This document shows positions 15,710 through 57,354 of a stretch of DNA of 64,000 nucleotides, in pieces (position 1 is the first letter of the stretch; every line of letters begins with the position of its first letter). Below the pieces are notes generated by a model. It ran no database searches. It saw nothing but the letters and a program-made list of their open reading frames with translations, and was not told where the DNA came from. The DNA is from Promethearchaeati archaeon (GTDB taxonomy: Archaea > Asgardarchaeota > Atabeyarchaeia > Atabeyarchaeales > Atabeyarchaeaceae), in NCBI GenBank assembly GCA_019058495.1, contig JAHPYV010000002.1:3143-67142 (forward strand). Reading direction: 5' to 3'. The position numbers and the translations under genes were made by a program.

Positions 15710-15733
15710 AACAAAGGAGGTTAGTATCGAGAA

Positions 15734-37224: not shown

Positions 37225-37887
37225 ATGATAATAACAGAACAAAAGAAACTAGACGAAATAATAGAGAAGCTTTCTCCTTTCAAGAAAGTCCTTGTGGTTG
37301 GGTGCGGACACTGTGCAACCGTCTGCCAGACTGGTGGAGAAGAGCAAGTGAAAGAAATGGTTGCAAAACTCAAGGAAGCAAAAGGCTCGAGCGGCATCGT
37401 TGTTGAGAGTGCTATGATAGAAGAGCCGTGCGATGTGAGAATCTTCAAACGGGACAGCAAGAAATTTAAGAAAGAGTTCGAAGGCGCGGATGTTATTGTG
37501 CCAATGTCCTGTGGAGTCGGCGTTCAGACAATTGCTCAAGTGACAGGCAAAGTTGTCGTTCCAGCGTTGAATACATTGTTTTTAGGACAAGTTGAGAGGA
37601 TCGGTAAATTTGAGGAAATGTGTCGTGCGTGTGGGAATTGCATCTTAGATCAGACTGGTGGCATCTGTCCAATAACGAGATGCGCAAAGGGATTGCTCAA
37701 CGGTCCTTGCGGTGGTATGAGCAAAGGAAAATGTGAAGTTAACAATTACACTAAAGACTGTGGTTGGGTGTTAATCTACAACAAACTCAAGGAACAAGGA
37801 AGGCTAGACCAATTTAGACAGTATAGACAGCCAAGAGATTACGCGCTGTCAGGTTATCCGAGAAGCGTCGATACTAGAGCTGCTTGA
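37225..37887 (+). CDS. metV: MetV-type Cys-rich protein (methylene-THF reductase C-terminal-domain family)
   Basis: VVGCGHCATVCQTGGEE...MSCGVGVQ...CRACGNC...GGICPITRCAKGLLNGPCGG. Precedes metF. Confidence 0.8.
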   Translation: MIITEQKKLDEIIEKLSPFKKVLVVGCGHCATVCQTGGEEQVKEMVAKLKEAKGSSGIVVESAMIEEPCDVRIFKRDSKKFKKEFEGADVIVPMSCGVGVQTIAQVTGKVVVPALNTLFLGQVERIGKFEEMCRACGNCILDQTGGICPITRCAKGLLNGPCGGMSKGKCEVNNYTKDCGWVLIYNKLKEQGRLDQFRQYRQPRDYALSGYPRSVDTRAA

Positions 37888-37935
37888 ATGGTGGCAATGA
37901 AAAGCAATAATAGTTGTATATTGGAGGTGTAATTA

Positions 37936-38862
37936 ATGGTGCAGGCATATAGCAATCTCATGAAGGAGATCGCCAAAGGCAAGTTCGTTTACACTGGCGA
38001 ACTAGAGCCGGAAAAAACAACGGATATGACTGAAGTAATAAACGACGCGAAAGAACTCGCTGGTTATGCTGTCGCGTGCAATGTTACTGATAATCCAAAG
38101 TCATGTGGGTACTTCAGCAGTCTTGCAGCTTCATACATAGTTCAACGTGACGCCAACATGGAGGCTGTATACCAACTCACTTGCCGCGACAGGAATAGAC
38201 TGGCCTTGATATCCGATTTACTCGGTGCAGGAGCACTTGGCATAAAAAACGTCTTAGCCCTTACTGGAGACCACACGATGGTCGGAGACAATCCAGCTTC
38301 CAAACCAGTATTTGATCTTGATTCAGCACAATTGACATCACTCATAAAAATGATGGATCAAAAAGAAGTGGATCTAGCTGGCAACAAAATCGAACATCCT
38401 CCTAAGCTAAATGTCGGGGTGGCAGCGAATCCAAACGCTGACCCACTGGAACCAGAACTTCTCAAACTTGAGAGAAAAGCAAAGGTCGGCGCAGACTTTG
38501 TCCAAACCCAAGTTGTATTCGACATTGAGAAAGCAAAGCAGTTCCTGAAAGATGCATCATCCTACAATGTTCCATTGCTAATAGGAATCTTTCCGTTGAA
38601 GAGCTACGGAATAGCAGACTTCTTTAACAAGAACGTTCCAGGATGCTCAGTGCCAACTGAGATCCTAGACAAACTGAAGCAGCTAAAGGAAAACATACAG
38701 GACAAGGAAGAGCGAAAGAGGAAGACAGACGAGCTGAACGTAAATTACTTCACCGACTTCATCAGGGAATTGAAGAAGACGAAAGGATGCAGAGGAGTCC
38801 ACGTGATGGCGGTCGGTTATGCCAGTGTAACAAAACAACTTATAGACCGAGTAGGTCACTAG
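37936..38862 (+). CDS. metF: methylenetetrahydrofolate reductase (small MetF type)
   Basis: YTGELEPEK...NVTDNP...LTCRDRNRLALISDLLGAGALGIKNVLALTGDH...FVQTQVVFD. Confidence 0.85.
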   Translation: MVQAYSNLMKEIAKGKFVYTGELEPEKTTDMTEVINDAKELAGYAVACNVTDNPKSCGYFSSLAASYIVQRDANMEAVYQLTCRDRNRLALISDLLGAGALGIKNVLALTGDHTMVGDNPASKPVFDLDSAQLTSLIKMMDQKEVDLAGNKIEHPPKLNVGVAANPNADPLEPELLKLERKAKVGADFVQTQVVFDIEKAKQFLKDASSYNVPLLIGIFPLKSYGIADFFNKNVPGCSVPTEILDKLKQLKENIQDKEERKRKTDELNVNYFTDFIRELKKTKGCRGVHVMAVGYASVTKQLIDRVGH

Positions 38863-38911
38863 TCACTTTATTATGACGATTTTTGGAGAAGTGAAGAGCT
38901 GGGGGCAATAG

Positions 38912-39451
38912 ATGAAAATCTGCATCCCCCTCAACTCAAAAACTGAGACCCTGAGAAAATGGGTTGCCAAGGTCTCATACAAGAATGTACTAGCATTCTA
39001 CGCGATTGGTTCCACGATCGATGAAATTCTAGCCAACATTAAGGAAAAAGCCGATGCACATTTCACGAACCTTGCAAATTTGAAATGGCTTCAAGTGGAA
39101 CTTAAGCGCATCAGCATTGCTGAGGTTGACATAAACGAGGCCTTCATCGTTGATTTTCTTGTGAAATCATCGCAAGAGTGCAAGATTGGAAACAGGATTC
39201 CAGCCGAGATACTCCTGCCTCTTCAAATGACTCTCTGTCCCGTAGTTGATATGTACGATGAAGATCCATGGCTTTCGGAATGCAGAGGGATGGTAGCGAA
39301 GGAGGAGGCATGCTACCTCGCCAACAATGGCATAAGAGGACCGTACTCCATAGCAAAGCTTAAAGAAGACGACAAGGGAGGACTCGTTTGGGATGTCTCA
39401 TCCAGAACCGGCGAAAAAGAGCATCTGATAATAAAGAGCACTATCGACTAG
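38912..39451 (+). CDS. hypothetical protein
   Basis: 179-aa ORF in an operon-like position between metF and the MetF-like gene. No recognisable motif. Confidence 0.45.
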   Translation: MKICIPLNSKTETLRKWVAKVSYKNVLAFYAIGSTIDEILANIKEKADAHFTNLANLKWLQVELKRISIAEVDINEAFIVDFLVKSSQECKIGNRIPAEILLPLQMTLCPVVDMYDEDPWLSECRGMVAKEEACYLANNGIRGPYSIAKLKEDDKGGLVWDVSSRTGEKEHLIIKSTID

Positions 39452-39485
39452 CGACGTAATGCTATTTTCAGGTATGTAATGAAAG

Positions 39486-40343
39486 GTGATTTTGACGAAA
39501 CTGATCCGGCATCTAAGCAACGAGGAATTCGTAGCACTGGCGGAACTAACGTTCAATGAAGGGATTGGCAAGTCATCTTTCATGGGAGAGGCTAGGAAAC
39601 TGTCTAGATTCTGTGATGCGATCGTGGTCTCGGATTACTCATTTGGGCTCCCAACTATGAATCCCATTGTCCCTGCTCTATGGCTGAACAGCGAGGAAAT
39701 CGAATCGGTTATGGGATTCTACATAGAACACAGAAACCCGAAGGCGATATTCTCGGATGTGCTTGCAGGCGTAGAAAGCAGCTTGACCAATGTGATAATC
39801 TCTTCCTATGAGAACTCAAGCGACTTCGGGACCTGTTTGGAATTAGTTGACGGGATAAAACTCACCCTTGAAAAACAATCAAAAGCAAGGATAAGTGAAC
39901 CACATAGACTAGCTAATATCGGGCTCAGTTCAAGCTACATGATCGAGAGGCCTGAGGACAGTGTAGCCCTGGCAAGAAGATACGGAGCCGACTTCGTCTG
40001 TCCCCCGGAGACGTACGATATTTCAGGCATAATTGAGCCCTTAGTGAAAAGAGCAAAATCGATTAGCATGCATACAATACTAAGGACAACTCTGTATGCA
40101 TCCCCCAAAACCGTCAAGTTCGCTCGAAAATTCATACCTGAAATGTTCATACCTCCAGAATTTGTGGAAGCCGTGGAGAGTTCCTCCAATCCCCTGGAAG
40201 TCGGGTTGAAATTTGCCAAGGATTTTGTGGAAACCATAAGGAACCTCGAAGCGTCAGGTGTCTACTTGGTCATGCCACAGAGAACCGAGGTTTACAAGTA
40301 CTTGCCTGACATAACAGGAAAAAACACTTCCGGGGTCGACTGA
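39486..40343 (+). CDS. highly diverged MetF-like protein (catalytic motifs degenerate)
   Basis: 285 aa, collinear with MetF (ALAELTFNEG...CDAIVVSDYSFG...YIEHRNPKAIFSDVLAG...NVIISS). The CRDRNR and LTGDH motifs are not conserved. Confidence 0.5.
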   Translation: MILTKLIRHLSNEEFVALAELTFNEGIGKSSFMGEARKLSRFCDAIVVSDYSFGLPTMNPIVPALWLNSEEIESVMGFYIEHRNPKAIFSDVLAGVESSLTNVIISSYENSSDFGTCLELVDGIKLTLEKQSKARISEPHRLANIGLSSSYMIERPEDSVALARRYGADFVCPPETYDISGIIEPLVKRAKSISMHTILRTTLYASPKTVKFARKFIPEMFIPPEFVEAVESSSNPLEVGLKFAKDFVETIRNLEASGVYLVMPQRTEVYKYLPDITGKNTSGVD

Positions 40344-40451
40344 CTTCGGCATTTTAAGCATTAGTAACCCTGATCGAGTGACACACCAGGAACCTCTCCC
40401 TCGGGATCAATGCTTGACGACCTGGTGCCGTATCAACTCATTTGCATTTTC

Positions 40452-40967
40452 CTAAGTTTCGTCTTCGTGCCCCACATTTTTCGTTAATGGTAATGGAACT
40501 ATAGGCGTTCCTTCGACTTTCAGAGCACGAAGGGCAATGCAGCTGTTGATCGACAGAATTCCTTTGACAAGCCTCAGGCTTTCAATGAATCTTGTTAGCT
40601 CGGTCAGGCTTCCTGTTTCAACTTTCAGCCATATACCACATTTTCCACTCATCCAGTAAGCTTCAGTCACAAGTGGAGATCCAACAAGCATTTCTATGAC
40701 TTCACTTTCATGTCTTGAAGCGGTGCTGACTGTTATGTAAGCTATTATTGACTTGCCTGTTTTTTCGGGATTCAAGGCTATTGTGAATCGGTCAATAACC
40801 TTATCTCTAATCAATCTTTCAACGCGCTTTCGTACAGCAGATTCGGAGAGACCAACGGAGTTCGCTATATCCGCATAGGGTGCCCGACCGTCCTTGAGCA
40901 GGCGCTCTATGATCTTCTTGTCTTTCTTGTCCGCTACTTCTTGATAACTCATTTTCTCCTCCTCCAA
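40452..40967 (-). CDS. Lrp/AsnC-family transcriptional regulator
   Basis: HTH YADIANSVGLSESAVRKRVERL plus a C-terminal RAM/AsnC domain. Confidence 0.85.
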   Translation of the reverse strand: MEEEKMSYQEVADKKDKKIIERLLKDGRAPYADIANSVGLSESAVRKRVERLIRDKVIDRFTIALNPEKTGKSIIAYITVSTASRHESEVIEMLVGSPLVTEAYWMSGKCGIWLKVETGSLTELTRFIESLRLVKGILSINSCIALRALKVEGTPIVPLPLTKNVGHEDET

Positions 40968-41238
40968 CGACTATTTTTCACTCTTTCGTTCACTTATATT
41001 AACCTTTTCACTATTCTGCTGCAAATTCATTGACTGATTATGTACAATGAGGGGCTTGAGACGCCCGTTTTAGTCCAACGAGAGTTGGTTTTCGCCTTCG
41101 TGTGAAGCCTTTTCTCCAGAATGACGCCTAAAATAGTCTCAACTAGGGGGAATTGGACCGTGGTTTCCATAGTATTGCATTGACTTCGGTTACGAATACA
41201 TCACTTTTTGTCCGCTTTCACAGCTTTTTCCATACCTT

Positions 41239-41652
41239 TTGGTTACACTAACTACTTATTCGTGCGTGCTCTATATACCTCATCAATACAGAACAACCGA
41301 AATGTTTGGAGGAGATATGGAGTTGCCGCAAAAACATCTGAAAGAAATTGCCTTGGTCGCTCTAGCAAAGGAGTTGCCGAGTGTAGCTACGTCTATCAGC
41401 CAGGAAAAGAGGGAATCAATCAGCGAGGAGTCGATTGATCTCATACTTCAGTCCCAGAGAAATCCACTGCCTCAAGGTCTAGCTTGGTCGATAATACGCT
41501 TAATGAGCTACGAGAAAGAGACCACTGATGCTGGAATGGAGAAACTGCTTGAGGCCGCCATGATGGTGGAACCTGAAGGGACAATCCAGCTACTTGAGAA
41601 ACATGGCGAGAGGGCAGCCGCGAATGCATTAAGGAGAATAATCTCCACGTAA
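41239..41652 (+). CDS. hypothetical helical protein
   Basis: ORF directly upstream of mer. Likely start is ATG 41302 (MFGGDMELPQ). No family recognised. Confidence 0.4.
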   Translation: MVTLTTYSCVLYIPHQYRTTEMFGGDMELPQKHLKEIALVALAKELPSVATSISQEKRESISEESIDLILQSQRNPLPQGLAWSIIRLMSYEKETTDAGMEKLLEAAMMVEPEGTIQLLEKHGERAAANALRRIIST

Positions 41653-41659
41653 TAGTCTT

Positions 41660-42685
41660 GTGATTTATAAGAAAACAGCGGAAGGGATGATTGCGATGAA
41701 ATTTGGTGTGGAGTTTGTTCCGAACAATCCGATAGAAGAAGTAATGAAGTGGGCGTCGGTCGCTGAGCAGAAGAAGTTCGACTACATCTGGGTCACAGAT
41801 CACTTCAACAACCGCAACACTTACGTCACATTGACATCGATAGCCATGAAGACGTCATCGGTAAGGATTGGCCCAGGCGTAACTAATCCTTATCTCATAA
41901 ATCCAGCTTGGACCGCTTCCGCTGTGGCCAGTATCAATGAGGTGTCAAAAGGTCGCGCCGTCTTGGGAATTGGAGCAGGGGATCGGACTACATTATCGTA
42001 TCTTGGTTTGGAACAGAAGAGCCCTGTATTAGCCTTGGCAGAGTGTGTAGACATCATTAGAGGGCTGTTGAAGGGTGAAGATGTCAAGGTCCCGGGACAG
42101 ATATTCAATGTGACAGGTGCAAGACTAAACTATCAGTCAGGGTTCGTACCTATCTACCTTGGCGCTCAAGGACCAAAGATGCTGCGTTTAGCCGCGAAGA
42201 TTAGCGATGGCGTCTTGATAAATTCGTCTCACCCTGCAGACATATCACTGGCCGTGAAGGAAGTGCGGAATGGTCTTGAGGACGCTGGCAAGTCTTCCTC
42301 GCAGTTTGACGTGGCTGCTTATACGAGTTTCTCAGTAAGCGCAGATCCGGTCGAAGCTGTAAAGCTAGCGAGGCCGGTCGTGGCATTCATTGCCGCAGCC
42401 ACCCCCGATGTCGTGCTCGAGAGACACGGAATTCCTCCTGAGCGTGTACAAGTAATAAAGGAAGCGCTTGCAAGAGGCCAGTTCAAAGATGCGTTTAAAG
42501 CAGTCAACGATGAGCTTCTCGAAGCTTTCTCGATAACGGGAACACCGTCTCAGTGCACCGAGAAAATAGCTGCAATACTGAAGGAAGGGGTGTCGCAATT
42601 CGTAATTGGCTCACCGATAGGAGCAGACAAAGTGAAGACACTTGAGTCCATTGGCTCAGAGATAATGCCACAATTCGTTCAGTGA
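41660..42685 (+). CDS. mer: F420-dependent 5,10-methylenetetrahydromethanopterin reductase
   Basis: MKFGVEFVPN (ATG 41696), GPGVTNPY, YLGAQGPKMLRLAAKISDGVLIN, FDVAAYTSFSV, VVAFIAAATPDVVLERHGI and EAFSITGTP...VSQFVIGSPIG follow methanogen Mer closely. Confidence 0.85.
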   Translation: MIYKKTAEGMIAMKFGVEFVPNNPIEEVMKWASVAEQKKFDYIWVTDHFNNRNTYVTLTSIAMKTSSVRIGPGVTNPYLINPAWTASAVASINEVSKGRAVLGIGAGDRTTLSYLGLEQKSPVLALAECVDIIRGLLKGEDVKVPGQIFNVTGARLNYQSGFVPIYLGAQGPKMLRLAAKISDGVLINSSHPADISLAVKEVRNGLEDAGKSSSQFDVAAYTSFSVSADPVEAVKLARPVVAFIAAATPDVVLERHGIPPERVQVIKEALARGQFKDAFKAVNDELLEAFSITGTPSQCTEKIAAILKEGVSQFVIGSPIGADKVKTLESIGSEIMPQFVQ

Positions 42686-42790
42686 AGACAGCTACAAATT
42701 TCTATCGGCATCTTTCTTTTCTAATCTCTTCTTTTTGTGTATTAAGAAAGAGAGTAATGGCATGCTTCTTCGGCCCACGTTTTTGGGTTT

Positions 42791-43699
42791 CTAGAATGGC
42801 GCCTTTATTGTGTCAAGTCTAGTCGAAACTATGTTGCAGCCAGAGACTCCTTTAACCGTTCTTAACTCCTTGGCTAGCGTGCTCACCAAATTGACATTGG
42901 TCTCGGTGATTCCTTTGCTCTTTACTTCTGTTTTCGATGAGCTTTGCTCTATGTCCTTGATTTTGTTAATGAAGTCTTCGGGTGGTTTTGAGCCTGGGTA
43001 AAGCTTGTTGATCCAATTAGCCGTCTCAACTGAGTCGATAGGATAGAGCGTTATGATCAGAGGCATCCCTACTTTGCTAGTCTGATTGGCAATTATCTTG
43101 GCGTTTTCGCTGTCGTAGACTGGCAATGTCAGGAGATATGAGGCACCAGCACTCTTCTCCTTCCGGATCGTCACTTCTTGCATTTCGGGTCGTGAGTGAT
43201 CGAATCCGAGGACTGCGCCAATCTCGAAGCTTGTGGGTTTCGTAATTGCTTCTCCTGTGAAGGCTTTGCCATTATTCATTTCCTTGATCATTGTTATCAA
43301 TTGAACAGCATCGAGGTCGAACACAGGTTTCGCCTTGACGTATGTGCCTGTAGTCGTATGAGTCCCAATGGAGACGATGATGTTAGTCAATCCGAGCTGA
43401 CTGGCAGTCAGGATGTCAGAGAAAAGACCTAGCCTATTCTTGTCTCTGCTATCCAAACCGTATATGGACTCGAGTTTGAACTTCTCCTTGATCAGGTAAC
43501 AAGGGATTAGAGTGTTAAGGTAGAGTGAAGCCCTAGGGTCTCGTCTTACAATTACAGCATCAACCAAGTTCTGCAGATTCTTCGCTTTATCCTCCAATCT
43601 ATCAATAGATGTTTGGCTGTTGACTTCAAGCTCAGCCATCGTGACGAACTTTCCTTCTTTCAGTTTTCCGACCACACCACTACTCAAAACCTTAGACAT
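42791..43699 (-). CDS. MetF-family methylene-tetrahydrofolate reductase paralog (diverged)
   Basis: 302 aa collinear with MetF (SRDKNRLGLFSDILTASQLGLTNIIVSIGTH, KPVFDLDAVQLITMIKEM). Preceded by a second metV. Confidence 0.7.
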   Translation of the reverse strand: MSKVLSSGVVGKLKEGKFVTMAELEVNSQTSIDRLEDKAKNLQNLVDAVIVRRDPRASLYLNTLIPCYLIKEKFKLESIYGLDSRDKNRLGLFSDILTASQLGLTNIIVSIGTHTTTGTYVKAKPVFDLDAVQLITMIKEMNNGKAFTGEAITKPTSFEIGAVLGFDHSRPEMQEVTIRKEKSAGASYLLTLPVYDSENAKIIANQTSKVGMPLIITLYPIDSVETANWINKLYPGSKPPEDFINKIKDIEQSSSKTEVKSKGITETNVNLVSTLAKELRTVKGVSGCNIVSTRLDTIKAPF

Positions 43700-43736
43700 G
43701 AGTTACAGAACCTCCAGCAATTCATCGCTATAGATT

Positions 43737-44390
43737 CTAATCTGTCCAGACAACTTCTCCAAGAGTGGCCTTAATCGAGCCATCCCTCTCAGGTTGATAT
43801 TTCATCAGATTGTCGAGCTTTCCGAATTGCTTCACTCTGTCGATTATCTGAACCCAGACACAGTCGTTCTTGAAGCCTCCGACTTCACATTTTCCATCGG
43901 CCACTGTTTCACATGGTCCATTGAGAAGTCCCTTTGGGCATCTGGATATTGCGCATATTCCTCCAGTGTCGAATAGGTTGCATGACCCGCACATCCTGCA
44001 TCTTTCGTAGAATCTACCGAGTCTTTCAACCATGCCCAGAAACTTGGTGTCGAGTGATGGAATGACCGGCTTCTCGGTTAGATCCGCAATAGACTGTACG
44101 CCCACTCCACAGGTCATTGCTAGGATGGCGTCTGCCTCCTCGATCTGCTTTTTCACTGTTCTAAGGTCCCTCTTTGATATCCTCATGTCGCAAGGTGTTT
44201 CGACTGCAATTGTTGCCAAAATCTGTTTTTTCTCCTTGAGTTTCTCTACCATCTCTTTGATCTGCTCTTCTCCGCCTGTCTGGCACAGCGCTGCGCACGT
44301 GTTGCAGCCCACAATCACGATTTTATCGGAACCTTCAAGCATCTTCTCAATATCTTCCAGCGGTTTTTGCTCCGTAATTATCAAACTCAA
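43737..44390 (-). CDS. MetV-type Cys-rich protein (second copy)
   Basis: Roughly 50% of residues match the 37225..37887 product in my by-eye alignment (IVGCNTCAALCQTGGEEQIKEMV...CGVGVQS...GGICAISRCPKGLLNGPC). Confidence 0.8.
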   Translation of the reverse strand: MSLIITEQKPLEDIEKMLEGSDKIVIVGCNTCAALCQTGGEEQIKEMVEKLKEKKQILATIAVETPCDMRISKRDLRTVKKQIEEADAILAMTCGVGVQSIADLTEKPVIPSLDTKFLGMVERLGRFYERCRMCGSCNLFDTGGICAISRCPKGLLNGPCETVADGKCEVGGFKNDCVWVQIIDRVKQFGKLDNLMKYQPERDGSIKATLGEVVWTD

Positions 44391-44434: not shown

Positions 44435-45067
44435 CTAGACTTTTTTTGTGACTTCAATCATACCTATCTCAAGCGCCTTCAAAGTATCCGTGGCGCTTCT
44501 CTGCATTTCGTCCTCAAGAACCTCTTTTACTTCATTGATTTCTACAGGCATCTTACCTGTACCGAGTGCGGCCCCAAGCATTATCACATTTGACATTGAG
44601 AAGTCGCCGAACTCGCTCTTTGATATCTCATTGGCCTTTATTGTCTTCACGTCTGGAGAAAATGTTTTCATTATTTGGACAACTTCGTCAAATGTGGCTC
44701 CTTTCCAGTTCTCAGATACGGCTTGAGCTGGAAGTATCTCATACAGATTTACCAGTACACATGTCTTTGGGGATACAAACCTGGCTCCTCGAAGAGCCTC
44801 ATTGGTTTCCATGGCCATTAAGATATCTGCGCCTGCCAGGGGAACCAGTGGAGAGATTACACTCATTCTCTCGTTTAGTTCCTCCCCAGGATCGAAGATG
44901 ACGTATCTTACAGAACTATCAACAGATCCTTCGCGTTGCGATGCTCCGCGTGTCTCTGTGCCGACAACGATCCATCCTTTCTTCTGGCCGACCTTCTTCA
45001 ACACGTTACCGATTGTCATTATTCCTTGCCCGCCAACTCCAACCACTAAGACACTATACTTTTTCAA
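44435..45067 (-). CDS. iorB: indolepyruvate:ferredoxin oxidoreductase beta subunit
   Basis: VVGVGGQGIMT N-terminus, 210 aa, directly downstream of iorA. Confidence 0.85.
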   Translation of the reverse strand: MKKYSVLVVGVGGQGIMTIGNVLKKVGQKKGWIVVGTETRGASQREGSVDSSVRYVIFDPGEELNERMSVISPLVPLAGADILMAMETNEALRGARFVSPKTCVLVNLYEILPAQAVSENWKGATFDEVVQIMKTFSPDVKTIKANEISKSEFGDFSMSNVIMLGAALGTGKMPVEINEVKEVLEDEMQRSATDTLKALEIGMIEVTKKV

Positions 45068-45085: not shown

Positions 45086-47047
45086 TCAGTCTGGACTCAC
45101 ATGCGGGTTAACAGTGGTTTTGGTTATGGCCATTCCGCTCCTACAGACCTCCTTACAAGCACCGCAAAGGGTGCATCTGGCATCTTCAATGTAAGCGAAC
45201 TCTTTACCATTTTCTGCCTTCCGCACGACTGCTGGGCAGGCGAAGCGTCTATAACATTCTTCGCAGTTTGTGCAACGATCGGAATCGATCGCGTAGTACG
45301 AGTATTTGCCTTTCTCGCGTTCAGCTTCTCTGATCGGTTCCATTCTTCTCTTTGCAGGTAACACGCATTCGCGTTCTGAGATAACTACCCGCACACCTTT
45401 CTCTTCCAATGCCTCAGTGATAACCTCCATAGCGTGGCGGATGTTATATGGATCAAATGATCTTACATATTTCACTCCACAAGCTTTCGCTATGTCTCTT
45501 AGGCTTACTGCTGGTGGAACTTCATCGCGTAGACTGCTAACGCCAGTAGCAGGTGTAGGTTGCCCTCCAGTCATGCCAACCCACTTGTTGTCCATGATAA
45601 CTACAAGAACATTAGCGCCATTGTATACTGCACTTATTAGCCCAGGTATCCCTGAATGCAAGAATGTGCTATCACCGATCAAACCAACCATTGTGTCCTT
45701 GACCTTGAAGCTCATCCCTGCTGCTATGTTGAAGCCAGCACCCATAGAGACGACCCAGTCCTGCATGGAGTAAGGGGGAAGTGCAAGCGTCGCGTAACAG
45801 CCGATATCTCCTCCGAATACGACTTGCCCTTTTCTCTCGGCTTCTATGAATTGCTGAGCTGCCTTCTTCAGTGCATATGCCGTAGCCCTATGTGGGCATC
45901 CTGGGCACATGCCTGGGTTTCTCTGCAGAGCCTTTGCTACGGCCTTGCTGTATTTTGCCTGTATGCCTGCATAATCTACTGGTTCCTTCATCCCAGTCGC
46001 TTTGCACATACCCCTTATGACAATGTCTGTATTCAATTCGCTAACCGCGGGGAAAACGTTTTTCCCATGCATTTCTCTGAGAATCTTCTTCTCGAATAGT
46101 ATCCTTTTTACTTCTGCCTCGATGAAGCCTTCAAGCTCCTCAACAACCAATATCTTCTCGAGGCCTTGAGCAAATCTCTCTATTAACTCGGGATTGATTG
46201 GATAGACCATGCCAAGCTTGAGAACAGGAAAATCGTCAATGCTGAGAGTGTCCGACGCTTCCATTGTATAGTTGAATGCGGCGCCACTTGTTATGATACC
46301 TGTCTTCGCCTTGCCGGGTATTATTCTATTGAGCTCAGACATCTCGCCTGAAGCCTTCTCAACTTTCTGAATTCGGCTCATCAATCTCGCTTTGTTTCCT
46401 ACGGCAACAAGGGTAGCAGAGACGAGTTTTCCAGGCGCTTTCTTGAACAGTCCTTCTGCCTTGGGAGGAGTGAGTTTGCCTAGGGTTACCTCACCTATTC
46501 CATGCAGAGTTCTAGGACCAGCATTTAGGATGACTGGAAGGTCAAACTTCTCAGAAAGTTCGAATGCTTTTAGCGTGAAGTCCTTGCTTTCCTGTGAATT
46601 TGAGGGTTCAAGACAGATCGTGTGGGCGTGTAGCGCATAGTACCTGTTGTCTTGTTCGTTGGTTGAACTTATGCAGCTTGGATCCCCTCCATTGACTAGG
46701 ACAAAAGCTCCAGGTTGAACTCCAATATAGCACAACGTGAAGAACGGATCGGCTGCGATATTCATGCCTACATGCTTCATCGCGCAGAGTGATCTCACTC
46801 CCGACCAAGCACCACCAATGGCATTCTCGAGCGCTACCGCCTCATTCACAGAATATTGAAAATGCAATCCCGGAATGCCTTTGGCGATCTCAGATATGGT
46901 GTCTCCAACTTCTGAGGCTGGGGTGCCGGGATAGGTTGTTACCATACCTACGCCCGCTTCTAATGCGCCACGAGCTATAGCCTCAGCGCCAAGCATGAAC
47001 ACTTTTTCACCAGGTTTATCCATAAGTATTTCTTTAGTAATTGGCAA
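45086..47047 (-). CDS. iorA: indolepyruvate:ferredoxin oxidoreductase alpha subunit
   Basis: 653 aa. TPP motif GDSTFLHSG...N and C-terminal 2x[4Fe-4S] CTNCEECYRRFACP / CTLCGACKEVC. Confidence 0.88.
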   Translation of the reverse strand: MPITKEILMDKPGEKVFMLGAEAIARGALEAGVGMVTTYPGTPASEVGDTISEIAKGIPGLHFQYSVNEAVALENAIGGAWSGVRSLCAMKHVGMNIAADPFFTLCYIGVQPGAFVLVNGGDPSCISSTNEQDNRYYALHAHTICLEPSNSQESKDFTLKAFELSEKFDLPVILNAGPRTLHGIGEVTLGKLTPPKAEGLFKKAPGKLVSATLVAVGNKARLMSRIQKVEKASGEMSELNRIIPGKAKTGIITSGAAFNYTMEASDTLSIDDFPVLKLGMVYPINPELIERFAQGLEKILVVEELEGFIEAEVKRILFEKKILREMHGKNVFPAVSELNTDIVIRGMCKATGMKEPVDYAGIQAKYSKAVAKALQRNPGMCPGCPHRATAYALKKAAQQFIEAERKGQVVFGGDIGCYATLALPPYSMQDWVVSMGAGFNIAAGMSFKVKDTMVGLIGDSTFLHSGIPGLISAVYNGANVLVVIMDNKWVGMTGGQPTPATGVSSLRDEVPPAVSLRDIAKACGVKYVRSFDPYNIRHAMEVITEALEEKGVRVVISERECVLPAKRRMEPIREAEREKGKYSYYAIDSDRCTNCEECYRRFACPAVVRKAENGKEFAYIEDARCTLCGACKEVCRSGMAITKTTVNPHVSPD

Positions 47048-47263: not shown

Positions 47264-48757
47264 GTGAATTCAACTCCTGCATTGGGGTGGACGATGATGG
47301 GTTACTCCCGCTATAATAGCGAAAATCCTTCAGCCACGTCAGCTGAGGAACTTGCAGCTGATTATGTTGGCATTGAACGATTCTTCTCCCCTAAGAATGT
47401 GGTCGTTATTGGCGCGTCGAACAGTCCAAGAAGGTTTGGCTACAACGTTATGAAGAATCTGATCGAAGCAGGTTTTGATGGAAACATTTTTCCCGTGAGC
47501 CTGAAGGAAAATATCGTATTCGAGAAACCCGCGTATAAGAGTGTGCTCGACATAAGTGATCCCATTGATCTTGCAATCATTATCATTCCAGCAGCCATAG
47601 TCTCCAGCACCGTTGAGGAGTGTGGAAAAAAAGGTATTAAGGCTATAAGTGTACTCTCTGGCGGCTTCAGCGAAGTTGGGACCAAGGGAGCCGAACTTGA
47701 GAAAGAGGTTACGAGAGTTGCCGAGAAATATGGAATTCGAATAGTCGGTCCCAACTGTGTTGGAACGATGAACACTCATAGAGATCTCAACGCTTCTTTT
47801 GTTATGTACTCAGTGAAAGGAAACATGGGGTTTATCACCCAAAGCGGAGCACTGGGTGCAGCCTGCTCATATGTATCCAAGAGAGAAAAGCTCGGATTCA
47901 GTAAATTCGTAAACCTAGGGAACGCTTGCGATGTCTCTGTCCCAGAGATAGTAGAGTACTACGCACGCGACCCCGACACTAATGTCATTGGTATCTACTT
48001 AGAGGGAGTTAAGGATGGTCGGGAGTTCCTCGATGCCATTAGTGAAACCACACCCATAAAACCTATAGTTGTTGTCAAAGCAGGTCGAACCGAGCAGGGC
48101 GCAAAAGCAGCATCTTCACATACAGGATCGCTTGCAGGGTCGGACAGGATCTATAAAGCGTTATTCAAGCAGAAAGGAGTTGTCAGAGCCAACTCTTTGT
48201 TTGAGTTAATCGATGTCGCCAAAGCGTTTACAAAGCAACCGCTTCCAAAAGGAAAACGGGTCGGAATAATAACCAACGCTGGCGGTGCAGGCGTTCTGGC
48301 CACTGACGCTTGCTCCGATAACGGACTGACCGTGCCGTCTTTAACGAATGAAACCGTGAAGGCGCTCAGATCGTTTCTCCCAGATGTTGCAATACTCAAC
48401 AATCCAGTGGACATAATAGCAAGCGCTAACAAAGACTGCTATCTTAAAACCACGGAGATCGTCGCGGCTGACAAGAACATAGATGCCTTGATAGTCAACT
48501 GTGTTGTTCCAACGTTCTTAGGTATGAAACCCAGTGAACACGCTGAAGGCGTCGCAGGAGCCTATCACAATAAAGTCAAAGAGTACGGTAAACCTGTCGT
48601 ATCTTGCTGGATGGCAGGAGAGCTTGCCGAACCAGGAAGGGAGATCCTCGAAAAAATAGGCATTCCATCATACTCCTCACCAGAAAAAGCAGCAATCGCT
48701 CTCTCATACATGGCAGATTACCGCGAATTCGTCAACAGAGTAAAGAAAGGGAAGTAG
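47264..48757 (+). CDS. acetate--CoA ligase (ADP-forming) alpha-type subunit (CoA-binding + ligase-CoA domains)
   Basis: FFSPKNVVVIGASNSPRRFGYNVMKNL, GPNCVGTMN and SHTGSLAGS (phosphohistidine loop). Confidence 0.85.
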   Translation: MNSTPALGWTMMGYSRYNSENPSATSAEELAADYVGIERFFSPKNVVVIGASNSPRRFGYNVMKNLIEAGFDGNIFPVSLKENIVFEKPAYKSVLDISDPIDLAIIIIPAAIVSSTVEECGKKGIKAISVLSGGFSEVGTKGAELEKEVTRVAEKYGIRIVGPNCVGTMNTHRDLNASFVMYSVKGNMGFITQSGALGAACSYVSKREKLGFSKFVNLGNACDVSVPEIVEYYARDPDTNVIGIYLEGVKDGREFLDAISETTPIKPIVVVKAGRTEQGAKAASSHTGSLAGSDRIYKALFKQKGVVRANSLFELIDVAKAFTKQPLPKGKRVGIITNAGGAGVLATDACSDNGLTVPSLTNETVKALRSFLPDVAILNNPVDIIASANKDCYLKTTEIVAADKNIDALIVNCVVPTFLGMKPSEHAEGVAGAYHNKVKEYGKPVVSCWMAGELAEPGREILEKIGIPSYSSPEKAAIALSYMADYREFVNRVKKGK

Positions 48758-52527: not shown

Positions 52528-53901
52528 CTACTTCAAGCTGATCATGGGTTTTGGTAATTTCAATTTTTCATGTGCTTTGTCTTCAATTATCTGTTTAGCA
52601 ATAACCTTCAGTGACTTCTCGATTGCACCGATATTATGATTTGTAGCGACTATCAGATTTGCTTTGGTTATTATCCCTTCCTTGTCAGTCCAGTAGTTGT
52701 GGATCAAGTTTCCTCTCGGCGCCTCAACCACGCCGACGCCGTTTCCTTCACGTGGCTCTACTGTTTCGAGCTTATAGTCCTTGCTCACAATATCTGGATC
52801 CTCAAGCAACTTCTTCGCTTTTCCTGCCGCGTCCAATATCTCTATCACTCTCGCCCAATGATATGCAAATGTCGCGTGGCATGGTCTTCCCACTTTGGCT
52901 CTCAATTGCTTTAGCGCTTCGTTTCCTCTTGGTGTAGCCATCTTGTCAACCACATTTATCCTTGCGAGTGGTCCTGCTCTCCATATTCCATCTGGGTAAC
53001 CAGCTGGCTTATAGAAGAGGTGGGTAGCATAGCAATGCGGTACAACCTTCTCTCCCGCAACGTCCACGTATTCTGCAGCGGGAACTTCCGCTTCGATCTT
53101 ACCTGAAGGGGACATCACTCTAATGTTACCATCATATAAGTTGTGTTCTCCATTCTTGGCTAAACCAATGTAGTATGTTTCGACAACGCCGATTTTTGTT
53201 ATGACATCCCAGTAGTCCTCAACTATCTTCGTTACAAGTCCTAAGCTGAACTCGGCAAGCTCTATGGATCTATCCATTCTCTTAATCCACTCATCTCTCT
53301 GGGTCTCGGTGAGTCCTTTAGTCATCCCGCCAGGTATCGCCGTAACAGGATGAACAGATTTCCCTCCAACTACAGCGCACAATTCCTGCGCATGCTTCAT
53401 GAGTTCAATGGCTTTCTTCGCTGTGTCAGGCATTTTGTTGATCACGGTGACAATGTTTCTTGTTTCTGGCGGAGCGAATGGTCCAAGAAGAAAATCTGGA
53501 GATGCAAGAACATACAAGTGAAGCGCATGACTACTGATCTGCTTTGCCAGTAAGAGCAGTTCTCTGAGCTTCTTTGCTGAATCAGGCGGGTTGACTTTCC
53601 AAGCGTCTTCGACAGCTTTTACGGAAGCTATATGGTGTGGCTCAGGGCAGATCCCGCATATACGTGGCGCTATGATTCGAGCATCTTCAGCAAGTCTTCC
53701 TTCAAGGAACTTTTCGAAGAATCTCACAGAATTAACGTTGAACTGAACGTCTGAGACCATGCCCTTGTTGAGCTTTATCGTGACAGAACCGTGTCCCTCA
53801 AGGCGTGTAATGGGCTCGATCTTTATCTCAGTTTCCTTCTGTTCCTTTGGTTCCCTGACTTCCTTAGCCACGCTTGCCTTACCTTTCACTCTTTGACCCA
53901 C
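52528..53901 (-). CDS. mvhA: F420-non-reducing [NiFe] hydrogenase large subunit, lacking the C-terminal DPCxxCxxH motif
   Basis: RLEGHGS and N-terminal Ni ligands RICGICPEPHH. Ends ...IVATNHNIGAIEKSL...KPMISLK* without the C-terminal Cys pair. Confidence 0.88.
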   Translation of the reverse strand: MGQRVKGKASVAKEVREPKEQKETEIKIEPITRLEGHGSVTIKLNKGMVSDVQFNVNSVRFFEKFLEGRLAEDARIIAPRICGICPEPHHIASVKAVEDAWKVNPPDSAKKLRELLLLAKQISSHALHLYVLASPDFLLGPFAPPETRNIVTVINKMPDTAKKAIELMKHAQELCAVVGGKSVHPVTAIPGGMTKGLTETQRDEWIKRMDRSIELAEFSLGLVTKIVEDYWDVITKIGVVETYYIGLAKNGEHNLYDGNIRVMSPSGKIEAEVPAAEYVDVAGEKVVPHCYATHLFYKPAGYPDGIWRAGPLARINVVDKMATPRGNEALKQLRAKVGRPCHATFAYHWARVIEILDAAGKAKKLLEDPDIVSKDYKLETVEPREGNGVGVVEAPRGNLIHNYWTDKEGIITKANLIVATNHNIGAIEKSLKVIAKQIIEDKAHEKLKLPKPMISLK

Positions 53902-54796
53902 TCCTGATCTTGGATATCAGTGATGACGCATATGTGAACTTGTACAGCTGCCCCACAGGATCCTTGAATGCCGCAAGCATCTTCTTCGGTTCCATATCCG
54001 CAATCCCTCCAAAGGTCCCAATTAGTCTTGCTCCTTGATCGGTGACGCCATCAGGAGGACCATTGCATCCCTTGCACGGATGGTTTGCATTCGGACATTG
54101 AGCACCGCAACCAGCTCGTGTTCCAGGGCCCATGCAGATGTAACCTTGATTAAGAAGGCACTTCTCTGGGTCTGGCCGCCCTTCGAAATCCCTGTGAAAC
54201 TCCTTTATGTTCTTCTCCTCTTTCTTCCTCTCACATTCGTCGCAAACAGACTTAATCGAATGCTCAAGAGGCTTCCCAGTAAGTAGCGATAGAGCTGCAT
54301 TGGCAATCTCAGTGGAAGTTGGAGGACAACCAGGGAGATAGGCATCAACCTTGACTATTTGATCATTTCGGGGAATGAACTTAGTTATAGTTGGCAAGTT
54401 TTGCGAAGGAATGGTGTCTCTGTTGACGACCGTATCGGCTTTGATGAATTTCCTGTCAAGAAGTTCGCTCCTCGTGGAAAGATTTGCTAAGCCAGGTACG
54501 CCTCCAAAGGTGGAACACGTACCGAGGGCAACTAGAGCCTTAGCTTTTTCTCTGCATAATCTGAGGAGATGCACATCTTCTTCCGTTCGGCATAGGCCTT
54601 CAACAAAAGCCGCATCTAGCGAACCTTTTGGGAGCTTCTCAAGGTGATCAAGTTTGAAATCCACGGCAGCAACCCAATATTGAATATCAAGCAAAGGTAT
54701 TACATCAAGCAGCTTCTCATGCAGATCGAAGAGTGATTGGTGGCATCCCCAACAGCTTGATAATTGCATGAAAACAACTTTCTTCTTGTCAGCCAT
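53879..54796 (-). CDS. mvhG: F420-non-reducing [NiFe] hydrogenase small subunit
   Basis: LSSCWGCHQS proximal-cluster motif plus further Cys clusters (GTCSTFGG, CDECERK, CPNANHPCKGC). Confidence 0.88.
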   Translation of the reverse strand: MADKKKVVFMQLSSCWGCHQSLFDLHEKLLDVIPLLDIQYWVAAVDFKLDHLEKLPKGSLDAAFVEGLCRTEEDVHLLRLCREKAKALVALGTCSTFGGVPGLANLSTRSELLDRKFIKADTVVNRDTIPSQNLPTITKFIPRNDQIVKVDAYLPGCPPTSTEIANAALSLLTGKPLEHSIKSVCDECERKKEEKNIKEFHRDFEGRPDPEKCLLNQGYICMGPGTRAGCGAQCPNANHPCKGCNGPPDGVTDQGARLIGTFGGIADMEPKKMLAAFKDPVGQLYKFTYASSLISKIRSGSKSER

Positions 54797-54810
54797 GTTT
54801 GTTCAGCTTC

Positions 54811-55287
54811 CTAACCGAGCAGGTCCTTTTCATCAACAGTCTGCTTCGGTCTGTTATTCTTCATCGGATTTGGTCCAAGTTTCTTGAGTACCCTTACGTA
54901 GTCTTTCACAACTTCTGCAAGCTTGCTGCCCTCACTTGCTGATATCCATTCAAGGCGAAGGCGTTCTGGTTCTAAACCCGTTTGTTGGATGAGCTTCTTC
55001 AGAAGATACACGCGCCTCTCAGTTTTGTAGTTACCGTTTACGTAGTGACAGTCACCAGGGTGACATCCCGAGACAAGAACTCCGTCTGCGCCGAGCTCCA
55101 ACCCTTTGATCATGTACTCTGGGTCAAGCCGACTTGTGCACATGACCCTGACGAGTCTTAGATTAGGCGGGTATTGTATTCTGCTTGTTCCAGCCATATC
55201 AGCACCGGCGTAGGTGCACCAGTTACACACAAGACCGAGAATATAAGGCTCGAACTCTTTGCTTTTACCGCTGTTTTGCTCAACCAA
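54811..55287 (-). CDS. mvhD: methyl-viologen-reducing hydrogenase delta subunit
   Basis: LVCNWCTYAGAD...VMCTSR...VSGCHPGDCHY, typical of MvhD. All Cys, no in-frame UGA. Confidence 0.88.
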   Translation of the reverse strand: MVEQNSGKSKEFEPYILGLVCNWCTYAGADMAGTSRIQYPPNLRLVRVMCTSRLDPEYMIKGLELGADGVLVSGCHPGDCHYVNGNYKTERRVYLLKKLIQQTGLEPERLRLEWISASEGSKLAEVVKDYVRVLKKLGPNPMKNNRPKQTVDEKDLLG

Positions 55288-55300
55288 ATAATACCCTCTC

Positions 55301-57259
55301 CTATTGACTAGGTTTCTCTTCTAACAGAGCCTCTATTTGAGCAAGGATCTGTGAGTCTTTGAAGTGGTTCTGAGTTATTGATCCACTTGGGCAGGTTGCG
55401 ACACAGCATCCGCATCCCTTGCACAAAACGTTGTTTATCTTCGCTTTTCCATCTTCTATCGATATTGCACCAAATGGACACATCGCAATGCACGATAGAC
55501 ATCCGCTACACTTGTCTGAATTGACGATACTGTAGAACGGCTCAACTTCAACTTTGCCTTTGGACATGAGCGAAGCTGCACCTGAGGCAGCTCCTTTTGC
55601 CTGAGCAACCGCGTCAGGTATGTCCTTCGGTCCCTGCACGGCTCCAGCTATGAAAATCCCATCAGTAAGGGTGTCAACTGGTCTGAGCTTAGGATGAGCC
55701 TCTAGATAGAAGCCATCAGCGCTACGCGAAATTTTGAGTAAATGTTGAACTTCCTCTATATCCTGTCTCGGTACCAGTCCTACGCTGAGCACAACGAGGT
55801 CAGCTTCAACTTCGATTGGTCTTCCAAGCTCAGTGCTTTCAGACCTCACGATCAAGTTCTTTGTCATGGGATCCTCTAGAACTTCAGCTGCTCTACCCCG
55901 AATATAGTTTATACCATACTCCCTTTGCGCGCGCTCGTAGAATTCTTCGTAACCCTTTCCAAATGCACGAACATCCATGTAGAGTACGTAGATATTGGTA
56001 TCCGGGTGGTGCTCTTTGAGTTGCCTAGCATGTTTTGTTGCGTACATGCAGCAAACCCTTGAGCAGTAAGTGTTCTTTCTGAAGTTCCTTGACCCGACGC
56101 ATTGAATGAAGGCTACCGTCTTAGGCACTTTGAGGTCTGAGGGTCTAACAACCTCGCCGCCGGTAGCTCCGAATGCACTAAGCATTCTTTCTACCTGCAT
56201 GCCTGTCACGACATTCTCGTATGTGCCGTATCCATATTCTCCGGTGGGGTCGTATGGGTCGTAGCCTGTTGTGGCTATGATCGTTCCAACCTCGACTTCT
56301 TCTTCGGTAGGTTGCTGATTGAAGTCGATAGCCTCAGGTTCACAGGCCTTGACACAGAGCTTGCATTTCACGCATTTGTCCATGTCAATGGTGTACTTGT
56401 TTGGAACCGCTTGCGGAAAAGGCATGTATATTGCTCTTCTGGGTTTCAGTCCCAACTCGAATTCGTTAGGAACGTAGATGGGGCACACTTCCTCGCATTT
56501 GCCGCATCCATTGCACTTTGATTCAATAACATATCTTGGCTTCTTTACTATCTTAGCCTTGAAGTTTCCAACATAGCCTTCTATACTTTTGACCTCTGAA
56601 TAGGCGTGGAGCTTTATGTTTGGATGTCTTCCGACATCCGTCATCTTGGGCGTAAGTATACATGCTGAGCAGTCCATAGTTGGGAAAGTTTTGTCAAGTT
56701 GGATCATACGCCCGCCGATGGTGGTATTCTTCTCAACTAGATGAACCTCGAAGCCAGCCTCAGCCAAATCAAGAGCCGCTGAGATTCCGGATATTCCTCC
56801 GCCAATTATTAGACAGCTCTTCTTAACAGGAACTTCGATGATTTCAAGAGGCTCTATTTTTGACGCCTTGGCCACGGCAGATCGTACGAGGTCTTTCGCT
56901 ATTTCATAGGCTTTCTCAGGTTCATGCATGTGGCACCATGTGTCATGCTCTCTGATGTTAGCCTGTTCAAATAAGTATGGATTGATACCTGCTCCTCTGA
57001 TGGCATTTCTAAAAGTGGGCTCATGCATAAGAGGACTACAGGCAGATACAACTACACGGTTCAACTTGTGTTCTTTGATGTCAGTCTTTATCATTTCTTG
57101 ACCAGGGTCGCTACACATGAACCTGTAATCCTTAGCTAGCACAACGTTGGGCAGTGTTGATGCATAATCAGCAAGTCCCTTGACGTTTACAACGCCAGCG
57201 ATATTCGTTCCGCAATGGCAAACGTAAACTCCAATTCGAAGCTCGGACTCGTCTGACAT
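55301..57259 (-). CDS. hdrA: heterodisulfide reductase subunit A (FAD, multiple 4Fe-4S)
   Basis: 652 aa. IIGGGISGISAALDLA FAD motif. Ferredoxin motifs CNGCGKCEEVCP, CVKCKLCVKACE, CSGCLSCIAMCP and CKGCGCCVATCP. Confidence 0.9.
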   Translation of the reverse strand: MSDESELRIGVYVCHCGTNIAGVVNVKGLADYASTLPNVVLAKDYRFMCSDPGQEMIKTDIKEHKLNRVVVSACSPLMHEPTFRNAIRGAGINPYLFEQANIREHDTWCHMHEPEKAYEIAKDLVRSAVAKASKIEPLEIIEVPVKKSCLIIGGGISGISAALDLAEAGFEVHLVEKNTTIGGRMIQLDKTFPTMDCSACILTPKMTDVGRHPNIKLHAYSEVKSIEGYVGNFKAKIVKKPRYVIESKCNGCGKCEEVCPIYVPNEFELGLKPRRAIYMPFPQAVPNKYTIDMDKCVKCKLCVKACEPEAIDFNQQPTEEEVEVGTIIATTGYDPYDPTGEYGYGTYENVVTGMQVERMLSAFGATGGEVVRPSDLKVPKTVAFIQCVGSRNFRKNTYCSRVCCMYATKHARQLKEHHPDTNIYVLYMDVRAFGKGYEEFYERAQREYGINYIRGRAAEVLEDPMTKNLIVRSESTELGRPIEVEADLVVLSVGLVPRQDIEEVQHLLKISRSADGFYLEAHPKLRPVDTLTDGIFIAGAVQGPKDIPDAVAQAKGAASGAASLMSKGKVEVEPFYSIVNSDKCSGCLSCIAMCPFGAISIEDGKAKINNVLCKGCGCCVATCPSGSITQNHFKDSQILAQIEALLEEKPSQ

Positions 57260-57343
57260 AGATGATAACCCACCATATTAGTCGTGTTCAATAATCGAGT
57301 CTGTTAATATGACAACGTCTTCATGTTAACCGTCACTGATCAT

Positions 57344-57354
57344 TTATATATTTT
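57344..57354 (-). promoter_or_regulatory. TATA box upstream of hdrA-mvhDGA-vhuU
   Basis: Minus strand AAAATATATAA ~90 nt upstream of hdrA ATG 57259, inside the only large spacer of the hdr/mvh cluster. Confidence 0.4.

Follow-up and report, generated by a model that had tools for sequence, protein, structure and literature searches.

How is the Wood-Ljungdahl pathway's methylene-to-methyl step carried out in an archaeon whose genome appears to offer more than one enzyme for it? The question is raised by a 64-kb stretch of an Atabeyarchaeia genome (GenBank assembly GCA_019058495.1, contig JAHPYV010000002.1; 2.88 Mb, 94% complete), hereafter the window, in which the gene for an F420-dependent methylene-tetrahydromethanopterin (H4MPT) reductase (Mer) lies between two metV-metF pairs resembling those of the flavin- and iron-sulfur-type reductase MetVF. 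The initial annotation of this island, made from the sequence alone, had proposed two mechanistically different systems for this step, which agrees with our results for Mer and the first pair (MetV1-MetF1), whereas the second pair (MetV2-MetF2) is not an equivalent reductase. The explanation that we favour, with an about even chance of being correct as a whole, is that Mer and MetV1F1 both act on H4MPT, that a third MetF paralogue (MetF3) and the protein encoded by orf179 are accessories, and that MetV2F2 is a module of an Ior-type enzyme.

All open reading frames (ORFs) annotated in the island were recovered with their coordinates and strands, together with the motifs LTCRDRNR and ALTGDH in MetF1 and LDSRDKNR and SIGTH in MetF2, and the two MetV copies, previously judged to match at about half of their residues, are 53% identical. 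An Lrp-family regulator had also been placed between the pairs, along with two ORFs of unassigned function; the regulator is present, and the unannotated ORFs are three in number (orf179, orf285, and an ORF of ~116 amino acids before mer). The resulting gene order, metV-metF-orf179-orf285-lrp-orf137-mer-metF2-metV2-iorB-iorA-acd, is fully syntenic in two closed Atabeyarchaeia genomes (CP147779.1 and CP147780.1), which are among the three Atabeyarchaeia species genomes of our Asgard collection, as well as in further metagenome contigs, and the island is therefore a conserved trait of the lineage that is already present in public genomes. The nearest relatives of every island protein are from Atabeyarchaeia (some of the contigs are labelled Njordarchaeota by NCBI), and no PF02219 (MTHFR) or PF12225 (MetV) match was found in the 2.88-Mb genome beyond the island pairs. 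The two closed genomes have been described by Valentin-Alvarado et al. 2024 (PMC11291895), who reported an H4MPT Wood-Ljungdahl pathway and an expressed MTHFR in Atabeyarchaeia; the island is the same there, with identical gene order, but the published tables list one metF per genome, filed under the tetrahydrofolate (H4F) branch, compared with three MetF paralogues in the window. The sections of that paper available to us make no mention of MetV, MetF2, MetF3, the linkage to ior or the proximity of mer, and standard KEGG annotation has overlooked MetF2 and MetF3 in these genomes.

Mer and the first MetV-MetF pair

The mer gene (41696..42685, plus strand) encodes a protein that passes the equivalog cut-offs of NF002619 (443.3 bits; cut-off 276) and TIGR03555 (424.1 bits; cut-off 348.7) and matches the solved Mer of M. 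jannaschii (8qpl) and M. barkeri (1z69) from end to end (352 bits). Because the alignment to solved Mer begins at Met13 of the listed ORF, which starts with a GTG at 41660, the ATG at 41696, preceded by GGAAGGG, is the likely true start. The jMer residues Glu6, Asp96 and Phe233, whose importance is known from mutagenesis (PMC11094777), all have retained equivalents in the window protein, and the two proteins do not differ in the segments surrounding jMer residues 160 and 178 (residue 178 of 8qpl counts as Asn and the paper numbers Gln178, i.e., the numbering is unmatched). A generic luciferase-like (LLM) oxidoreductase was considered and rejected, the next best LLM family scoring 128 bits against 443, and four further LLM paralogues in the genome all fell below the Mer cut-offs. 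Together, the family scores and active-site residues show the predicted protein to be a genuine F420-dependent methylene-H4MPT reductase, as the initial annotation had held. It shares full-length likeness and catalytic equivalents with the solved enzymes and differs from them in its setting, since the gene sits among metVF paralogues in a host genome in which McrA was not found.

The first pair lies upstream on the same strand. MetV1 (37225..37887, plus strand; PF12225, 121.6 bits, cut-off 23), the Cys-rich iron-sulfur/zinc subunit, has 13 Cys columns, all of which are common to MetV2, and groups in the MetV tree with proteins of the Asgard family f14 (support 86/85). MetF1 (37936..38862, plus strand; PF02219, 134.5 bits, cut-off 24), the archaeal methylene-tetrahydropterin reductase subunit, shares about 60% of its residues with its counterparts in Syntrophoarchaeum, Methanophagales, Bathyarchaeia, Helarchaeota and Odinarchaeia. 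The catalytic and pterin-binding positions A to D (Gehl et al. 2024, PMC11094777) were read in E. coli numbering as Glu28, Phe223, Gln183 and Asp120, with the E. coli MetF reference for the alignment of the three MetF clades checked against PDB 1zp3. MetF1 has equivalents of all four residues, each kept in 53-55 of the 55 clade members. In both pairs of the window, MetF adjoins a PF12225-type MetV. Judged from their sequences, MetV1 and MetF1 are shown to form an intact MetVF of the type found in ANME-1 (anaerobic methanotrophic archaea, group 1), Bathyarchaeia and Asgard archaea.

The archaeal MetF clade of ANME-1, Syntrophoarchaeum, Bathyarchaeia and Asgard archaea has been proposed as a replacement of Mer (Chadwick et al. 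2022, PMC9012536). MetF1 belongs to this clade and is likewise paired with MetV; however, because Mer is also present only 2.8 kb from metF1, MetVF is here an addition and not a replacement, both systems being encoded within 5 kb. Another difference from the ANME-1-type system is the presence of extra cluster members, namely orf179 and a dead MetF paralogue. The acetogen MetVF (Clostridium ljungdahlii, PMC8515935; classes in PMC9430772) has the pair of MetV and MetF with a Cys-rich MetV (13 Cys) in common with the window, but the host here is an archaeon without a folate pathway, and the likely substrate is H4MPT-bound.

The second MetV-MetF pair and its predicted operon

The second pair lies on the minus strand and consists of metV2 (43737..44390; PF12225, 105.5 bits, cut-off 23) and metF2 (42791..43699; PF02219, 39.7 bits, cut-off 24). 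MetV2 has kept all 13 Cys ligands and evolves as slowly as MetV1 (nonsynonymous substitution rate, dN, 0.048), whereas MetF2 has been remodelled. It is only 30% identical to MetF1, and across its clade (n=22) Glu28 is kept in 22/22 members, Asp120 has become Ile, Thr or Ala, Gln183 has become Leu, Thr or Ile, and Phe223 has become Ile, i.e., three of the four catalytic or pterin-binding positions are lost. Of 77 alignment columns with a conservation of at least 95% across the MetF1 clade, 23 are retained in MetF2 (54 changed) and 19 in MetF3. The view of the second pair as merely a more diverged reductase is thus contradicted by the loss of the Asp120, Gln183 and Phe223 equivalents and of most conserved columns.

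MetF2 is nevertheless a maintained protein that still folds, in its model, as an MTHFR barrel. Its AlphaFold2 (AF2) model (predicted local distance difference test, pLDDT, 86.5) has only MTHFR structures among its top 50 PDB fold hits, although no PDB sequence matched it at E<=1. MetF2 forms an isolated family: an exhaustive search of 1.84 billion cluster representatives gave a single full-length 50%-identity cluster, and nothing else exceeded 34% identity; among the 400 Asgard species genomes surveyed, MetF2 is present in three, only the Atabeyarchaeia. Its dN exceeds those of MetF1 and Mer by a factor of three to four, and omega against its orthologues is about 0.1 (with the synonymous rate, dS, saturated), which indicates that metF2 is maintained. 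Decay into pseudogenes was rejected for both MetF2 and MetF3, since no relative has a broken frame and omega does not exceed about 0.1 (dS again saturated). A recent tandem-type duplication of MetV1F1 likewise found no support, since MetV2 forms a separate clade (support 100/100) that is not sister to MetV1. A join of MetF2 and MetF3 in the MetF tree (Shimodaira-Hasegawa-like approximate likelihood ratio test, 97) was not relied on, both being on very long branches. As a separate observation, the MetF2 of the window is nearer to that of A. deiterrae, which belongs to another genus (74%), than to that of Atabeyarchaeia-1 of the same genus (66%; comparison with G002 and G003).

The context of the second pair is a predicted oxidoreductase operon. 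An iorA-like gene (45086..47047, minus strand; POR_N, TPP_enzyme_C and Fer4) with a C-terminal 2x[4Fe-4S] domain and an iorB-like gene (44435..45067, minus strand; PF01558), the latter 44 nt upstream of metV2, precede metV2 and metF2 on one strand, and metF2 is the last gene of the string. The genes are separated by 18, 44 and 37 nt, and every one of these intergenic stretches has a Shine-Dalgarno-like motif but no TATA box. The IorA score (TIGR03336, 615 bits) is just under its cut-off of 650.9 and the IorB scores against the IOR_beta models (104-106 bits) are under cut-offs of 206-238; as both subunits fall below the equivalog cut-offs, the pair is, by sequence similarity, an Ior-like paralogue. 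Divergent from iorA lies the alpha-type gene of an ADP-forming acyl-CoA synthetase (47264..48757, plus strand; Succ_CoA_lig, CoA_binding_2 and Ligase_CoA_2; TIGR02717, 522 bits, under the cut-off of 567), and an enzyme of this kind is the usual partner of Ior in amino-acid fermentation. According to the published tables, the closed Atabeyarchaeia genomes carry 2 and 4 iorA copies. The linkage is consistent: iorB is directly upstream of metV2 in 6/6 of the MetF2 contigs examined, which are those with sequence on that side, and in 3 further loci of a metagenome sample of 80 MetV loci, no Ior gene lies within 4 kb in the 76 other metagenome MetV loci, and none was seen in three distant MetF contexts checked outside the MetV2 clade. 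In the most divergent MetF2 contig (L027), iorAB-metV2-metF2 is kept and mer is not adjacent. MetV2-MetF2 is not a second copy of the reductase but the distal half of an iorA-iorB-metV2-metF2 operon.

Two of the contigs depart from the arrangement in the window. An orf137 homologue directly follows metF2 in L027 (3027-4963), with mer missing between, and in an Atabeyarchaeia-like contig (L026:3-3153) the position of iorA is taken by an opposite-strand gene for a 335-residue helix-turn-helix protein with short flanking fragments, and iorA may have been disrupted there by an insertion.

Most likely, MetV2F2 serves the Ior-type enzyme as an electron module and is not a C1 reductase. It would be an attached electron-transfer or electron-sink module of an Ior-type 2-oxoacid:ferredoxin oxidoreductase in amino-acid fermentation, and its substrate would be other than a canonically bound pterin. 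Two points speak against this assignment: gene adjacency is no proof of an Ior-MetV2F2 complex, and MetF2, with its catalytic Glu, could bind pterin in another way. An analogy from acetogens, where an indolepyruvate oxidoreductase was among the inconsistently co-purifying contaminants of a Sporomusa ovata MetVF preparation (PMC9430772), might be a weak hint of physical contact between Ior and MetVF.

The competing possibility, which we regard as unlikely, is that the cell has two functional MetVF reductases in addition to Mer, with differences in their carrier (H4F versus H4MPT), their electron donor or both. Both MetF proteins are indeed above the Pfam MTHFR threshold, both MetV proteins are intact, and MetF2 retains the catalytic Glu, purifying selection and the MTHFR fold; in addition, the flavin-free reductase Mfr has a Leu at position B and a position D that is not strictly conserved (PMC11094777). 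However, the Asp and Gln that MetF2 has lost are the residues that hold the pterin ring, which H4F and H4MPT share, and these positions vary within the MetF2 clade. The 54 changed columns, the lack of a folate branch or folP in the class, and the tie of MetF2 to iorAB rather than to C1 genes, kept even in L027 without adjacent mer, all argue against a second functional MetVF.

MetF3, orf179 and the cluster in other Asgard archaea

The third MTHFR-fold paralogue, MetF3 (orf285; 39486..40343, plus strand), is collinear with MetF1 at 19% identity (E 4e-7), and its AF2 model (pLDDT 73) has MTHFR structures as all of its top PDB fold hits (template modelling score ~0.67). It is catalytically stripped: in its clade (n=18) Glu28 is kept, whereas Asp120 has become Glu or Gln, Gln183 has become Pro, and Phe223 has become Ala. 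The orthologue in the closed Asgard genome G116, 29% identical to that of the window and scoring 38.8 bits against PF02219, has Leu in place of Glu28. The frame is intact in 18/18 relatives, with a dN of 0.096 against the nearest orthologue. A scan of genome contigs with the MetF3 alignment, whose patterns were too specific, returned only two Atabeyarchaeia chromosomes.

Directly upstream, orf179 (38912..39451, plus strand) is a conserved accessory gene without a Pfam, NCBIfam or PDB match; the idea that it is a shrunken MetF relic found no support, with an hhalign probability of 0.1% and no PDB match. Among the 400 Asgard species genomes, 10 have a homologue of it, each time no more than 10 kb from mer or metVF, and 4 of the metagenome MetV loci have one too. 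Conservation and residue loss are observed, and on this basis MetF3 and orf179 are probably conserved, non-catalytic accessories of the mer-metVF cluster. Reuse of the C1 reductase scaffold is illustrated by both stripped paralogues, MetF3 with orf179 and MetF2 on the Ior operon.

The remaining members of the cluster are a small gene and a regulator. The former, orf137 (~116 amino acids), has no Pfam or NCBIfam match and no relationship to PDB entries or to MetF, and is placed at 41302..41652 (plus strand), i.e., from Met22 of the listed ORF (41239-41652), a start supported by its orthologues, which begin with MFGGD; a TATA-like CTATATAC lies ~25 nt upstream. The latter, lrp (40452..40967, minus strand), is divergent from orf137-mer and encodes an Lrp/AsnC-family regulator with an AsnC-type helix-turn-helix (HTH_AsnC, PF13404, 54.6 bits) and a C-terminal ligand-binding domain (AsnC_trans_reg, PF01037, 37.3 bits).

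Across the 400 Asgard genomes, Mer is present in 75 and a MetF1-type protein in 264, the two occur together in at least 8 coded families and are then often encoded side by side, and mer and metF lie within 10 kb of each other in at least 10 other Asgard genomes. G116 has lrp and lrp followed by orf179-metF3-orf137-mer-metV-metF on one strand, an order repeated in L089, so that an orf137 homologue precedes mer in both; G004 has lrp and orf179-metV-metF-mer. An orf285-sized ORF after mer in G004 was considered as a MetF3 homologue and dropped, as it gave no alignment. Next to the cluster, an Lrp gene is present in G116, G004, G127 and L032, as well as in 11 of the 80 metagenome MetV loci. The cluster core, comprising lrp, orf179, metF3, orf137, mer, metV and metF, thus recurs in other Asgard families, and this recurrent clustering speaks for MetVF being Mer's partner rather than solely its replacement.

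Some of these loci have further features. In G116, a gene for a eukaryote-type topoisomerase IB (L022:10433-11929) is found at a distance of 1.5 kb from the mer-metVF cluster, and the Mer homologue of G127 (L024:2619-4259, minus strand) has 546 amino acids, with an N-terminal extension of ~220 residues that has no family match. In another locus (L031:1299-5870; GCA_037443085.1), metV-metF comes directly after genes for both subunits (small and large) of a [NiFe] hydrogenase and for a HycI protease, all on one strand; this is possibly a hydrogenase-coupled MetVF.

Pterin carrier and electron donor

Which carrier and donor does MetV1F1 use? Cofactor genes were searched in this genome and in the two closed Atabeyarchaeia genomes. 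All three genomes have Ftr (three copies), Mch and Mtd, and none has FTHFS or FolD; RFAP synthase is over the cut-off in both closed genomes and was not found in this 94%-complete metagenome-assembled genome. The published tables agree for the closed genomes (folD 0, fhs 0, folP 0, RFAP synthase 1). The inventory of H4MPT versus folate genes suggested by the initial annotation therefore points to H4MPT, with Ftr, Mch, Mtd, Mer and RFAP synthase on one side and no FolD, FTHFS or folP on the other. As the class lacks folD, fhs and folP but has the H4MPT branch, MetV1F1 most likely acts on methylene-H4MPT beside the F420-dependent Mer.

The companion question of F420 biosynthesis, whose absence had been named as a ground for doubting Mer, received a divided answer: cofC, cofD and cofE are present, and cofG and cofH are absent. 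In our searches, CofE was found in 3/3 genomes, CofD in the two closed genomes only, and CofH-type FO synthase in none of the three; the published tables for the closed genomes agree and give cofG 0, cofH 0, cofC and cofD 1, cofE 3 and frhB-like 1. A class that has Mer and Mtd but no FO synthase may salvage FO, the deazaflavin head-group, and the missing synthase bears on the reconstruction of acetogenic metabolism for these Asgard archaea.

Several points weigh against the H4MPT assignment and the favoured explanation as a whole. To our knowledge, there is no biochemistry for any archaeal MetVF, and the carrier and donor proposed here are deduced purely from which genes are present. The clade of MetF1 is also found in Lokiarchaeia with fhs and folD and without most of the H4MPT branch (PMC12222021), and in the largest Asgard family of the survey (f20) MetF is found in 127/135 genomes and Mer in none, so membership of the clade alone does not fix the pterin. 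Two GlyA copies are listed in the published tables, and use of scavenged folate is possible. The class lacks cofG and cofH, and F420 may thus not be available to Mer and Mtd. Finally, the published metatranscriptome counts are very low (metF 16 and mer 1 in Atabeya-2). The carrier and donor of the archaeal MetF clade have been in question since the first ANME-1 genomes, and Atabeyarchaeia are well suited to a test of the carrier, having Mer and an intact MetVF in one neighbourhood, an H4MPT pathway, and no folate C1 or folP genes.

With regard to the donor, acetogen MetVF-type enzymes accept electrons in vitro from reduced ferredoxin but not from NADH (PMC9430772; PMC8515935). By analogy, MetV1F1 may receive electrons through MetV from reduced ferredoxin or from an Hdr/MvhD-type module, and not from F420. 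The cell would then run an F420-linked route and a low-potential, iron-sulfur-linked route through one step, possibly under a shared Lrp-type regulator, with MetF3 and orf179 acting as non-catalytic accessories.

A candidate module, mvhA-mvhG-mvhD-hdrA with hdrB-hdrC, is encoded in the window (52528..58870, minus strand; NiFeSe_Hases, Oxidored_q6, FlpD, HdrA-type Pyr_redox_2/Fer4, CCG and Fer4_8). The initial annotation had raised the possibility of coupling to this module, put at a distance of 10 kb; its nearest gene is 8.1 kb beyond metV2 (13.6 kb from metF1), unrelated genes intervene and the transcription units are separate, so contiguity fails and coupling is not shown in the window. In comparison with the Hdr-type MTHFR of Moorella thermoacetica and Sporomusa ovata (PMC9430772), MetV, MetF, HdrABC and MvhD are all encoded here within 21 kb, but they are neither contiguous nor in one operon. 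Such contiguity is seen only in G127, from another Asgard family, where the gene for an HdrA-HdrA-MvhD fusion of 1153 residues stops 3 nt short of metV (L024:7629-12687); in the metagenome sample, HdrA/MvhD adjoins metVF in 2/80 loci.

Would MetV1F1 dock onto MvhADG-HdrABC, so that methylene-H4MPT replaced the missing CoM-S-S-CoB as the high-potential acceptor of an H2-driven bifurcation, much as in the Hdr-type MTHFR of Moorella and Sporomusa? This is in keeping with the complete mvhAGD-hdrA and hdrBC set 8-14 kb away, whose proximity is kept in A. deiterrae, with the G127 fusion and the two metagenome loci, and with Hdr-linked MetVF described in other archaea (PMC9012536); moreover, the published study refers to the Hdr substrate of the lineage as an unidentified heterodisulfide (PMC11291895). 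Nonetheless, we consider docking improbable in view of the separate transcription units and the unrelated genes between, and also of the window HdrA, which is of the ordinary single-domain methanogen type with hdrBC retained, suggesting a disulfide substrate. Textbook potentials are about -310 mV for the methylene/methyl-H4MPT couple and about -414 mV for H2, which would leave bifurcation to ferredoxin with almost no driving force.

A bolder combination of two claims, quite improbable when both are taken jointly, is that (a) Mer, MetV-MetF, MetF3, orf179 and orf137 form one unit, possibly a complex, that couples the ferredoxin (or Hdr) and F420 pools via the methylene/methyl-H4MPT pair, and (b) IorAB-MetV2-MetF2 is a new class of four-subunit 2-oxoacid oxidoreductase, whose iron-sulfur/TIM-barrel electron outlet was derived from a C1 reductase. 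If (a) were true, archaea without an F420-reducing hydrogenase could run the H4MPT pathway on ferredoxin.

A related and very unlikely reading joins only Mer and MetVF: a ferredoxin-driven MetVF would form methyl-H4MPT and Mer would re-oxidise it to yield F420H2, the substrate cycle serving as a ferredoxin:F420 oxidoreductase that feeds Mtd. The co-orientation of mer and metVF in G116, G004 and L089 fits co-expression better than alternative use, but mer and metV1F1 are in different transcription units in Atabeyarchaeia, and the cycle would waste the potential of ferredoxin. Also in favour of the cycle, the Mer reaction is near equilibrium (about -6 kJ/mol). As to hydrogenases, only groups 3b, 3c and 4, without an F420-reducing group 3a, are reported for the class (PMC11291895), a further point in favour of the cycle, whereas both closed genomes carry an annotated FrhB-family gene.

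Equally unlikely is an anabolic role of MetV1F1 as in Methanosarcina (PMC9012536), i.e., formation of methyl-H4F for methionine apart from the acetyl-CoA pathway with methylene-H4F from serine or glycine. In its favour, the published study, which files metF under the H4F branch, reports two glyA copies and a glycine-cleavage system in the class (PMC11291895). However, the closed genomes lack folP, folD and fhs, MetF1 is in the ANME-1-type clade and not of the Methanosarcina type, and the repeated linkage of metVF is to mer, not to genes of folate metabolism.

Under the favoured explanation, in which Mer and MetV1F1 share H4MPT, the consumer of the methyl group would be the archaeal carbon monoxide dehydrogenase/acetyl-CoA synthase, encoded elsewhere in the window by cdhA-B-C-D-E (9753..17527, plus strand; Prismane, CO_dh, CdhC and two CdhD domains). 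Rfam and tRNA scans of the window gave no matches. Apart from these subjects, an ATP-dependent DNA ligase gene (24312-26071, minus strand) is broken up into two ORFs. The cause is one frameshift, which falls at the PML|AQRL junction immediately 5' of the KYDGER adenylation motif and could be an assembly error, the mark of a pseudogene or a recoding site.

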